Origin: Escherichia coli
GTDB taxonomy: Bacteria > Pseudomonadota > Gammaproteobacteria > Enterobacterales > Enterobacteriaceae
Length of the DNA stretch: 64,000 nt
NCBI RefSeq assembly: GCF_003334385.1
Contig: NZ_QOWN01000004.1
Strand: one strand, 5' to 3'
The translations under genes and the position numbers were made by a program. Under the pieces are notes generated by a model, which was given only the letters and a program-made list of their open reading frames with translations, did no database searches and had not been told where the DNA came from. Every line of letters begins with the position of its first letter. Within the stretch, counting starts at the first letter, position 1. Of the stretch, positions 22,330 to 24,040 are shown piece by piece.

Positions 22330-22524
22330 TTTTTGGTCCTTCTCTGGTGTTGTCTGGGAAGTGTAGAGCATGGCAGGGCGGGGTGCCTGGAGTGTGACAA
22401 AGGTTACACATCGCTGTATGCAATGCTGAAAATTTCAGCACTTAGCGAGGTGCGAGCAAGCTGGCGCTTGCATGGTGGCGTGCGACAGGTATAATCCACA
22501 ACGTTTTCCGCATACCTCTTCAGT

Positions 22525-22609
22525 GCCGAAGTGGCGAAATCGGTAGACGCAGTTGATTCAAAATCAACCGTAGAAATACGTGCCGGTTCGAGTCCGGCCT
22601 TCGGCACCA
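22525..22609 (+). tRNA. leuX: tRNA-Leu (anticodon CAA), leuX, 85 nt including CCA
   Basis: Sequence GCCGAAGTGGCGAAATCGGTAGACGCAGTTGATTCAAAATCAACCGTAGAAATACGTGCCGGTTCGAGTCCGGCCTTCGGCACCA folds as a type II tRNA with a long variable arm and anticodon CAA at 22559-22561. Confidence 0.92.
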
Positions 22610-22621
22610 TCGGAGCATCAA

Positions 22622-22647
22622 TAGACGTCAACGGACGTCTTTTTTTG
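22622..22647 (+). terminator. leuX rho-independent terminator (GACGTC-AACG-GACGTC + T7)
   Basis: Perfect 6-bp stem, 4-nt loop, followed by TTTTTTT about 13 nt after the tRNA 3' end. Confidence 0.6.
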
Positions 22648-22795
22648 TGCCTGAAATCCAGTATTTACCCATCATTCCCGCTATATTAACTCTCTCAAGG
22701 TCAACCGACTTCAACGTACATCTACCAACAGATGTTGGTACAGATGATGGTATTTCCGGTTCGATAATGCTTGTACCAACAGGGAGGGGATAAGC

Positions 22796-24040
22796 ATGGC
22801 TCTAACAGATATCAAAGTCAGAACAGCTAAGCCAACAGATAAGCAATACAAGTTAACTGATGGCAGTGGTATGCATCTTCTTGTCCACCCTAATGGTTCT
22901 AAGTACTGGCGTTTGCAGTACCGTTTTGACGGCAAGCAAAAGATGCTGGCTTTAGGTGTTTATCCTGACGTGTCGCTTGCCGATGCACGGACTCGCCGTG
23001 ACGACGCTCGTAATTTGTTGGCAAACAACATCGACCCGGGAGACAAAAAGAAAAGTGATAAAATTGAGCAAGAAGAAGCCCGCACTTTTGAACAACTCGC
23101 AGTTGAGTGGCATGCAACAAATAAAAAGTGGTCGGAAGAACATAGCAGGCGAGTACTGAAAAGCCTGGAGGATAATCTGTTTCCAGCTATTGGTAAGCGG
23201 AATATTGCGGATCTCAAAACCCGAGACCTGCTAGCCCCAATCAAAGCCGTTGAACTGTCAGGACGGCTTGAGGTTGCTTCACGATTACAACAGCGAACCA
23301 CGGCAATTATGCGCTATGCCGTGCAGAGTGGTTTACTGGACTATAACCCCGCGCAGGAGATGGTTGGCGCTGTTGCTTCAAGTAACAGACAGCATCGACC
23401 TGCTCTTCAGTTGAAGCGAATCCCAGAACTATTACGGCGCATAGATAGTTATACCGGTAGACCTCTTACTAGACTTGCCGTCGAACTCACGCTCCTGGTA
23501 TTCATTCGTTCAAGTGAACTACGCTTTGCTCGTTGGTCTGAGATCGATTTCGAAACATCAATGTGGACAATACCTGCAGAGCGCGAAGCTATTGACGGAG
23601 TAAAGCATTCACAGCGTGGTTCAAAAATGCGTACGCCTCATCTGGTGCCGCTTTCTCATCAAGCTTTAGCAATTCTTAAAGATGTTTACAAACTTAGTGG
23701 TGATCGCGATTTTGTTTTCATCGGCGATCATGACCATCGCAAACCGATGAGTGAAAACACGGTGAACAAGGCGCTGCGCGTTATGGGTTATGACACGAAG
23801 GTAGAGGTTTGTGGGCACGGTTTCAGGACAATGGCCTGTAGTTCATTGATCGAGTCTGGATTGTGGTCGAGGGATGCAGTGGAAAGGCAGATGAGCCATA
23901 TGGAACGTAACTCAGTACGCGCAGCTTACATTCATAAGGCCGAACATCTTGATGAACGGCGACTGATGCTGCAGTGGTGGGCTGATTTTTTGGATGCGAA
24001 TAGGGAAAGCGAAGTTAGCCCTTATGACTTTGGCAAATAG
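22796..24040 (+). CDS. P4-type tyrosine integrase (IntB-like), 414 aa, adjacent to leuX
   Basis: Tyrosine recombinase catalytic residues in the C-terminal half (R in MRTPHLVPL, HxxR in HGFRTM, Y in RAAYIHK); N-terminal MALTDIKVRTAKP... is typical of P4-family integrases, 187 bp downstream of a tRNA gene. Confidence 0.9.
   Translation: MALTDIKVRTAKPTDKQYKLTDGSGMHLLVHPNGSKYWRLQYRFDGKQKMLALGVYPDVSLADARTRRDDARNLLANNIDPGDKKKSDKIEQEEARTFEQLAVEWHATNKKWSEEHSRRVLKSLEDNLFPAIGKRNIADLKTRDLLAPIKAVELSGRLEVASRLQQRTTAIMRYAVQSGLLDYNPAQEMVGAVASSNRQHRPALQLKRIPELLRRIDSYTGRPLTRLAVELTLLVFIRSSELRFARWSEIDFETSMWTIPAEREAIDGVKHSQRGSKMRTPHLVPLSHQALAILKDVYKLSGDRDFVFIGDHDHRKPMSENTVNKALRVMGYDTKVEVCGHGFRTMACSSLIESGLWSRDAVERQMSHMERNSVRAAYIHKAEHLDERRLMLQWWADFLDANRESEVSPYDFGK

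Follow-up and report, generated by a model that had tools for sequence, protein, structure and literature searches.

What are the repeated TG(T/A)TGGTA motifs that stand between the leuX tRNA gene and the integrase gene of an Escherichia coli genomic island? We addressed this question in a 64,000-nucleotide stretch of contig NZ_QOWN01000004.1, referred to below as the window. A preliminary description had listed three motif copies here, two of them forming a perfect palindrome, and had proposed that they are integrase arm-type or autoregulatory binding sites. We find four copies, which are highly likely, on the strength of sequence comparison, to be the arm-type (P'-arm) sites in attL at which the island's own P4-family integrase binds. 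The features on which the argument draws are as follows, in window coordinates unless a locus is named (L001, phage P4); A1 to A4 denote alignments.

22525..22609, plus strand: leuX, tRNA-Leu(CAA), the integration target (ARAGORN; Rfam tRNA, 59 bits)
22590..22609, plus strand: attL core-type region GAGTCCGGCCTTCGGCACCA, identical to the 20-bp P4 attP core (L001 718-737; A1)
22623..22647, plus strand: terminator-like hairpin and T-run 3' of leuX, on the island side of the core; hairpin proper 22623-22640
22655..22667, plus strand: putative IHF-like site AATCCAGTATTTA in the core-to-arm interval; one mismatch to WATCAANNNNTTR, aligned with P4 AAAATCAATGCTT (A1)
22722..22730, minus strand: site 1, TGTTGGTAG, left half of the palindrome; a lineage-specific extra copy
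22733..22741, plus strand: site 2, TGTTGGTAC, first member of the 12-bp tandem; homologous in position to P4 L001 850-861 (A1, A2)
22745..22753, plus strand: site 3, TGATGGTAT, second tandem copy; homologue of P4 L001 862-873
22756..22765, plus strand: CCGGTTCGAT box between sites 3 and 4; invariant A2 columns T71, T72, C73, and A75
22773..22781, minus strand: site 4, TGTTGGTAC, inverted, 15 nt 5' of the ATG; homologous to the inverted P4 repeat L001 889-900
22796..24040, plus strand: int, P4-family tyrosine integrase of 414 aa (open reading frame; arm DNA-binding, central, and catalytic domains)

Four Motif Copies Lie between leuX and int

The four TG(T/A)TGGTA copies occur in one register within 60 bp (22722-22781), 15-74 bp 5' of int. 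The hairpin-to-int stretch reads CTACCAACAGATGTTGGTACAGATGATGGTAT...CTTGTACCAACAGGG, with CTACCAACAGATGTTGGTACAG at 22722-22743 and TTGTACCAACAGGG at 22771-22784 by direct reading. A repeat search returned several overlapping relationships within it. The first two copies form an inverted repeat whose 8-nt arms, TACCAACA (22723-22730) and TGTTGGTA (22733-22740), are 100% complementary across a 2-nt spacer. A 12-nt tandem, ACAGATGTTGGT/ACAGATGATGGT (22728-22751), comprises TGTTGGTAC at 22733-22741 and the degenerate TGATGGTAT at 22745-22753, and site 2 is fully complementary to site 4 across 10 nt. The direct 9-mer TACCAACAG begins at 22723 and again at 22774, its only two exact occurrences on either strand of the 64-kb window; the later copy (22774-22782) stops at an RBS-like GGGAGGGG (22782-22789), followed by the int ATG at 22796.

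This local density exceeds that of shuffled sequence: G[AT]TGGTA matches four times within 60 bp, against a maximum of two in 300 window shuffles, and the tandem pair plus inverted copy is found with two mismatches, against a best of three in 500 shuffles of the 110 nt 5' of int. The motif is not present in the core GAGTCCGGCCTTCGGCACCA, from which the four copies lie 113-172 bp away, and the 64-kb window holds neither a second motif cluster (P arm) nor another leuX 3' end and core. Two partial matches inside int, CCAACAGAT (22832-22840) and TACCAATAG (23187-23195), were judged coincidental or coding-driven; their positions differ from that of the P4 intragenic repeat, and they have no counterpart in the displayed int starts of other motif classes.

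The three copies of the preliminary description are therefore real, and all were located in the sequence. Its span, 22727-22780, marks the right region but clips a few bases at either end, and it overlooked the fourth, degenerate copy at 22745-22753. The perfect palindrome is present, with 8-nt arms, but is not what is conserved: its left half (22722-22730) belongs to this lineage only. What the alignments show to be conserved is the pair of tandem copies at 12 bp together with a single inverted copy.

The Copies Occupy the Arm-Repeat Positions of Phage P4

Arm repeats of P4 were taken as annotated features in GenBank records. The P4 record labels an "attP arm sequence repeat" at L001 850-861 and 862-873 (the tandem ATTGGGGGCATA/ATTGGGGGCATC) and at 889-900 (inverted, abutting the int ATG), and also annotates a tandem pair beyond the far side of the core. 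In A1 and A2, window sites 2 and 3 align column for column with the int-side P4 tandem, and site 4 with the inverted P4 copy. Distances agree as well, with 113 bp from core end to first repeat in P4 vs. 114 bp in the window. The window lineage carries the P4-type attP layout of an int-side tandem with an inverted copy and an opposite-side tandem (A1, A2, and A4, read with the P4 annotation). Comparison with the att regions of related P4-type islands, which the preliminary description had named as a check, thus gave a positive result: the motif layout is conserved.

In the P4 records, the int ATG lies inside the inverted arm repeat (ATGTGCCCCCAA, L001 889-903), and all relatives align from the next ATG, 12 nt downstream; to judge from this alignment, the annotated P4 int start may be four codons too early.

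Motif Copies Change Jointly across Related Elements

An IMG/VR scan with the integrase yielded 31 loci at 36-85% identity, to which we added E. coli genomes and a Salmonella houtenae contig. In some 30 related elements, a (G)GTTCGAT box separates a pair of direct copies, spaced at 12 nt, from a single inverted copy that precedes the ATG by 9-46 nt. A 12-nt tandem spacing scored best in 35 of 36 upstream regions; the exception, L040, is the remotest locus and gave a poor 11-nt fit. The motif itself is lineage-specific and changes jointly in all three positions, falling into the classes TGWTGGTA, TGCGGGTA, TGAGTATA, TGCTGGTAA (elements at tRNA-Asn, the target that ARAGORN identified for L021/L022), and TGGGGGCA (P4). 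Representative copies are:

Window, K-12 intB, UPEC 536, L010: TGTTGGTAC / TGATGGTAT / TGTTGGTAC (sites 2/3/4)
OkiPb, SK1: TGCGGGTAC / TGCGGGTAT / TGTGGGTAC (sites 2/3/4)
L015: TGAGTATAC / TGAGTATAT / TGAGTATAC (sites 2/3/4)
tRNA-Asn elements L021, L025: TGCTGGTAA
P4: TGGGGGCAT

Sites 2 and 3 agree at 7.8 of 9 positions within an element vs. 6.4 when elements are permuted (0 of 5000 permutations; 8 of 5040 with one representative per class). Site 1 follows a narrower distribution. It is present in the window, K-12, PCN033, UPEC 536, and L010, with a near-match in S. houtenae (AGTTGGTAT), and absent from P4, OkiPb, L015, L019, L021, and others.

The (G)GTTCGAT / GGTTCGAT box is the best-conserved stretch upstream of int in all lineages, P4 and the tRNA-Asn elements included, even though their arm motifs differ. 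A 9-mer within it, CCGGTTCGA, equals the leuX T-arm at 22583-22591, immediately 5' of the core, and the CCGGTTCGAT box overlaps the best -10 candidate, GATAAT (22763-22768). The box might be a pseudo-core half-site, a site for another factor, or part of that -10 element. Just 5' of the arm sites, the direct repeats GTCAACCGAC/TTCAACGTAC (22701-22715) place TCAAC twice at a 10-bp interval; these are kept in most leuX lineages (A1 consensus GTCAACCGAnTTCAACGTACATC) and are candidate sites for a recombination directionality factor (RDF) or for IHF/Fis, or a candidate -35 element.

The Motif Recurs at the Far End of the Island

Arm-type sites are expected to flank the attP core on either side, and hence to lie near the attR of an integrated element as well. 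The window holds the attL side only, so that the opposite arm was read in related islands. In strain GE3, the leuX-int region (attL) is 100% identical to the window, and the far island end lies about 45 kb outside it. At that end, 89 kb away in GE3, 55 nt of AT-rich DNA separate CGTGTTGGTATCTGTGTTGGTATA from the leuX-core repeat. PAI II of UPEC 536, whose attL is 91% identical to the window, ends in the same arrangement: At the attR of both islands, about 55 nt separate the leuX-core direct repeat from two tandem copies of TGTTGGTAT, which align with the P4 P-arm repeats (A4). A third lineage, an island of about 16 kb on an IMG/VR contig, has TGAGTATA sites 5' of its int (L052) and, at attR (L051), the tandem TTGAGTATAC/AAGTGAGTATAT, about 55 nt, and the core repeat. 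The motif is accordingly found on both attP arms in three lineages. A second, putative IHF-like sequence, AATCATGAGGTTA, was read by eye in the P arm from the attR sequences of UPEC 536 and GE3.

The GE3 attR core repeat (L042 39560-39600) contains the octamer CCTTCGCA in triplicate (TTTGAGTCCGGCCTTCGCACCTTCGCACCTTCGCACCA), followed by an attL-like remnant of another island. On the IMG/VR contig, the far end of the 16-kb TGAGTATA-class island is directly adjoined by a second island's attL, of class TGCGGGTA.

Motif Class Follows Residues of the Integrase Arm Domain

Int is 59% identical to P4 Int and contains PF13356 at residues 3-87 (1e-27) together with PF22022 and PF00589. Its N-terminal 96 residues match PDB 3JU0 (E = 2e-39), which the citation of Szwagierczak 2009 in PMC8138268 gives as the HAI7 integrase arm-type binding domain; the HPI arm domain (3JTZ/3RMP) is also homologous to the Int N-domain (3e-25). 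The cognate integrase of the motif copies carries a separate N-terminal arm DNA-binding domain (PF13356, 3JU0).

Domain-by-domain identity to the window Int is as follows for selected loci:

L033, L034: N-domain 76-77%, central 29-33%, catalytic 41-42%; same motif (TGWTGGTA)
L013, L030: N-domain 74%, central 80-84%, catalytic 85%; different motif (TGCGGGTA)
L020: N-domain 59%, central 81%, catalytic 85%; different motif (TGAGTATA)

Motif class follows specific arm-domain residues, not the catalytic domain, in a descriptive comparison that is uncorrected for phylogeny. In the N-domain alignment (A3), the TGWTGGTA class alone has H27 and Q41, the TG(C/T)GGGTA class alone has E48, and the TGAGTATA class alone has S19, F42, and H50. 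Only such specific residues separate the classes well; overall N-domain identity does so poorly, at 76% for the same class vs. 74% for a different one.

The IMG/VR loci L033, L034, and L039 all combine the window's motif and an arm domain of 76-77% identity with the diverged central and catalytic domains listed above, and no tRNA was detected within 1.5 kb upstream of them. They appear, from these identities, to be domain mosaics in which modules of arm domain plus arm sites have been exchanged between integrases of unrelated core specificity. The reverse combination is seen on IMG/VR contig 2859744465_000002 (L051/L052, L020/L030), where two tandem islands at a leuX-type core bear motifs TGAGTATA and TGCGGGTA, and the L020 and L030 catalytic domains are each 85% identical to the window's. 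Their sequences suggest that co-resident tandem islands have orthogonal arm specificities.

A broader proposition is possible, though we hold it to be doubtful: that integrases sharing one leuX core, with catalytic domains that are nearly identical, have diversified the arm motif and two to four arm-domain residues into mutually orthogonal classes, allowing independent tandem islands. If so, tandem islands at one tRNA would be integrated, excised, and autoregulated independently; the natural co-variation would amount to a readable recognition code for the PF13356 domain; and the lineage-specific fourth site, which completes the palindrome, would be an added operator that tightens autorepression and stabilizes the island.

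Alternative Explanations of the Repeats

The copies could instead be operators for another DNA-binding protein, either an RDF of the Vis/AlpA/Xis type or a host regulator, a reading that we consider improbable. The int region is a target of P4 Vis and of KplE1 TorI (PMC2951348), and PMC7498355 describes RDF sites as typically direct repeats about one helical turn apart, a description that the 12-bp tandem resembles. Set against this, motif class goes with particular signature residues in the N-domain of the integrase even where the catalytic domains are unrelated, and the motif stands on both arms in the P4 arm-repeat layout. No RDF gene was recognized beside int in the window, although one elsewhere in the 89-kb island is possible, and the TCAAC direct repeats at 22701-22715 are the better RDF candidates.

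An RNA or single-stranded DNA stem is less probable still. Here the inverted copies would pair in the int leader—as a hairpin of sites 1 and 2, or as a 10-bp stem of sites 2 and 4 near the RBS—and control int translation or transcription, with co-variation reflecting compensatory helix change. The fold is a good one: Positions 22700-22800 reach -31.1 kcal/mol (z = -3.1; 0 of 200 shuffles as good). The site 2/site 4 complementarity also holds across lineages, in that sites 2 and 4, treated as a formal helix, change on both sides at 6 of 9 positions and remain 94.9% complementary, a value reached by 0 of 500 shuffles. A stem, however, predicts neither the direct tandem copy, which co-varies too, nor the tandem copies on the far arm, which lie 16-100 kb away and have no inverted partner. 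In most lineages the site 1/site 2 hairpin is missing; the annotated P4 -10 lies within the tandem, so those copies would go untranscribed; and an Rfam scan of 22400-23000 at a permissive threshold returned only the tRNA. We therefore rejected a hairpin as the main explanation, since direct and far-arm copies carry the motif.

Chance repeats or a functionless by-product of local duplication have a negligible probability: The motifs are short (8-9 nt) and the TACCAACAG 9-mer with one mismatch shows no excess over the whole window (13 observed vs. 10.2 expected), yet local clustering is far above shuffles, and a co-varying layout conserved among elements with integrases 36-60% identical effectively refutes this reading.

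Arm-type sites of the island integrase are the reading that we retain. It is backed by direct observations: the repeats themselves, their positional homology to P4, the layout common to some 30 elements and the co-variation of its copies, the motif on both arms, and an arm domain with class-specific residues. Physical binding by Int, a role for IHF, and autorepression go beyond these observations and are inferred.

A Model for Intasome Assembly and Control of int

Under the arm-site reading, the N-terminal arm domain of Int (residues ~3-87) would bind the motif copies, leaving the core in the leuX 3' end to the central and catalytic domains. DNA bending, probably by IHF at 22655-22667, would bridge arm and core; the P4 int regulatory region contains a high-affinity IHF site (PMC7286903). 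The P' sites, together with the matching P-arm tandem at the island's far end, would form the intasome for integration and excision.

The same sites may also control int. The terminator-like hairpin 3' of leuX (22623-22647) implies that int needs a promoter of its own downstream, and would confine any such promoter to ~22648-22790, where the sites lie. The terminator stem differs by island lineage through compensatory changes (AGACGTC/GACGTCT in the window vs. AGACCTC/GAGGTCT in UPEC 536 and AR_0104; A1) and lies on the island side, which indicates that each island brings its own leuX terminator. A standard scan found no sigma-70 promoter on the plus strand upstream of int. A relaxed scan gave weak candidates only, the best being TACAGA-18-GATAAT (22739/22763; 8 of 12). 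In P4, record X05947 places a sigma-70 -10 (CATAAT) at the junction of the two int-side tandem repeats; the P4 -35/-10 geometry is lost in the window because site 1 adds about 6 bp.

With all sites no more than 75 bp from the int start and past the leuX terminator, bound Int would mask the int promoter and repress the gene that encodes it. P4 Int represses int through direct DNA binding near the transcription start, as PMC2951348 reports in citing Piazzolla 2006, and integrase genes adjacent to a tRNA with a promoter overlapping attL are generally autorepressed (PMC2951348). The terminator-confined promoter stretch, the P4 precedent, and this generality make autoregulation of int through the sites plausible by analogy, in line with the second function that had been proposed for them.

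Island Context and Significance

The cargo beside int (~25500-46000) includes a complete dpd cluster (dpdA, dpdB, dpdE-K, and dpdD, plus queD), to go by how RefSeq annotates the near-identical region of GE3. This cluster specifies 7-deazaguanine DNA modification and restriction, and its dpdA open reading frame spans 25485-26756. Beyond it lie IS fragments, a gene for phosphorothioate-dependent restriction, and metabolic genes. At 49847-49876 a 15-nt stretch, CATTTGACTGGAACC, is perfectly duplicated in tandem, and a 114-nt repeat (48861-48974 and 63593-63706; 81% identical) is probably IS debris. Window 22448-64000 and GE3 (L009) are not collinear throughout, GE3 being ~2.4 kb longer between the same end points; this difference is probably an IS insertion or deletion. 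The leuX locus is known as "hotspot 37" for defence islands (PMC12707154).

The 111-bp arm segment is found in 2440 of 5426 complete E. coli genomes, K-12 (upstream of intB) included. The analysis marks the functional attL limits for an island family that ranks among the commonest in E. coli. Arm sites tell which islands may remain mobilizable—those with int, P' sites, and an attR with P sites—and aid the delimiting of tandem or decayed islands. Orthogonal P4-family integrases could be engineered with the help of the motif classes and the N-domain residues that go with them; our understanding of such elements is unchanged. A full-text literature search found no name for the TGTTGGTA motif, with Piazzolla 2006, Pierson & Kahn 1987, and the PAI II536 att study outside its coverage.

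Comparison with Known Systems

Very probably, this is the ordinary, expected att architecture of a P4-family mobile island. What is mildly new is only that arm-domain/arm-site pairs appear to have diversified and been exchanged as modules among integrases with one tRNA target in common.

In phage lambda, the Int sites P1, P2, and P'1-P'3 are likewise short non-core repeats on both arms, read by a separate N-terminal domain (PMC2951348, PMC8138268), and IHF-like sites lie between core and arms in both systems. The two differ in the family of the arm domain, which in the window is PF13356/DUF4102 (the IntSXT subgroup of PMC8138268), and in the P' sites, which in the window include an inverted copy and stand farther from the core. 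The window resembles KplE1 IntS/attL (Panis et al. 2010, PMC2951348) in having tRNA and int in the same orientation with arm sites between them; self-repression through the arm sites was shown experimentally for IntS, whereas for the window int it is suggested by analogy. The HPI and HAI7 integrases possess a homologous N-terminal domain but serve other elements.

The closest matches share the leuX target. K-12 KpLE2 (intB) has an attL arm region 94.6% identical to the window, with all four sites; PAI II of UPEC 536 likewise has all four sites, in addition to its matching attR P-arm tandem. The cargo of both is unlike that of the window island.

P4 provides the reference layout. It and the window have the same 20-bp core, integrases of one family, and a tandem 113-114 bp from the core, and P4 and the window lineage both have an inverted copy immediately 5' of the int ATG and an other-arm tandem about 55 bp from the core. 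The recognition motif differs, TG(T/A)TGGTA in the window vs. TTGGGGGCA in P4; site 1, which makes the palindrome, is an extra of the window that P4 lacks, and the P4 -35/-10 spacing is not kept. Cargo differs too: The window island carries defence functions in its dpd cluster, whereas P4 is a satellite phage.
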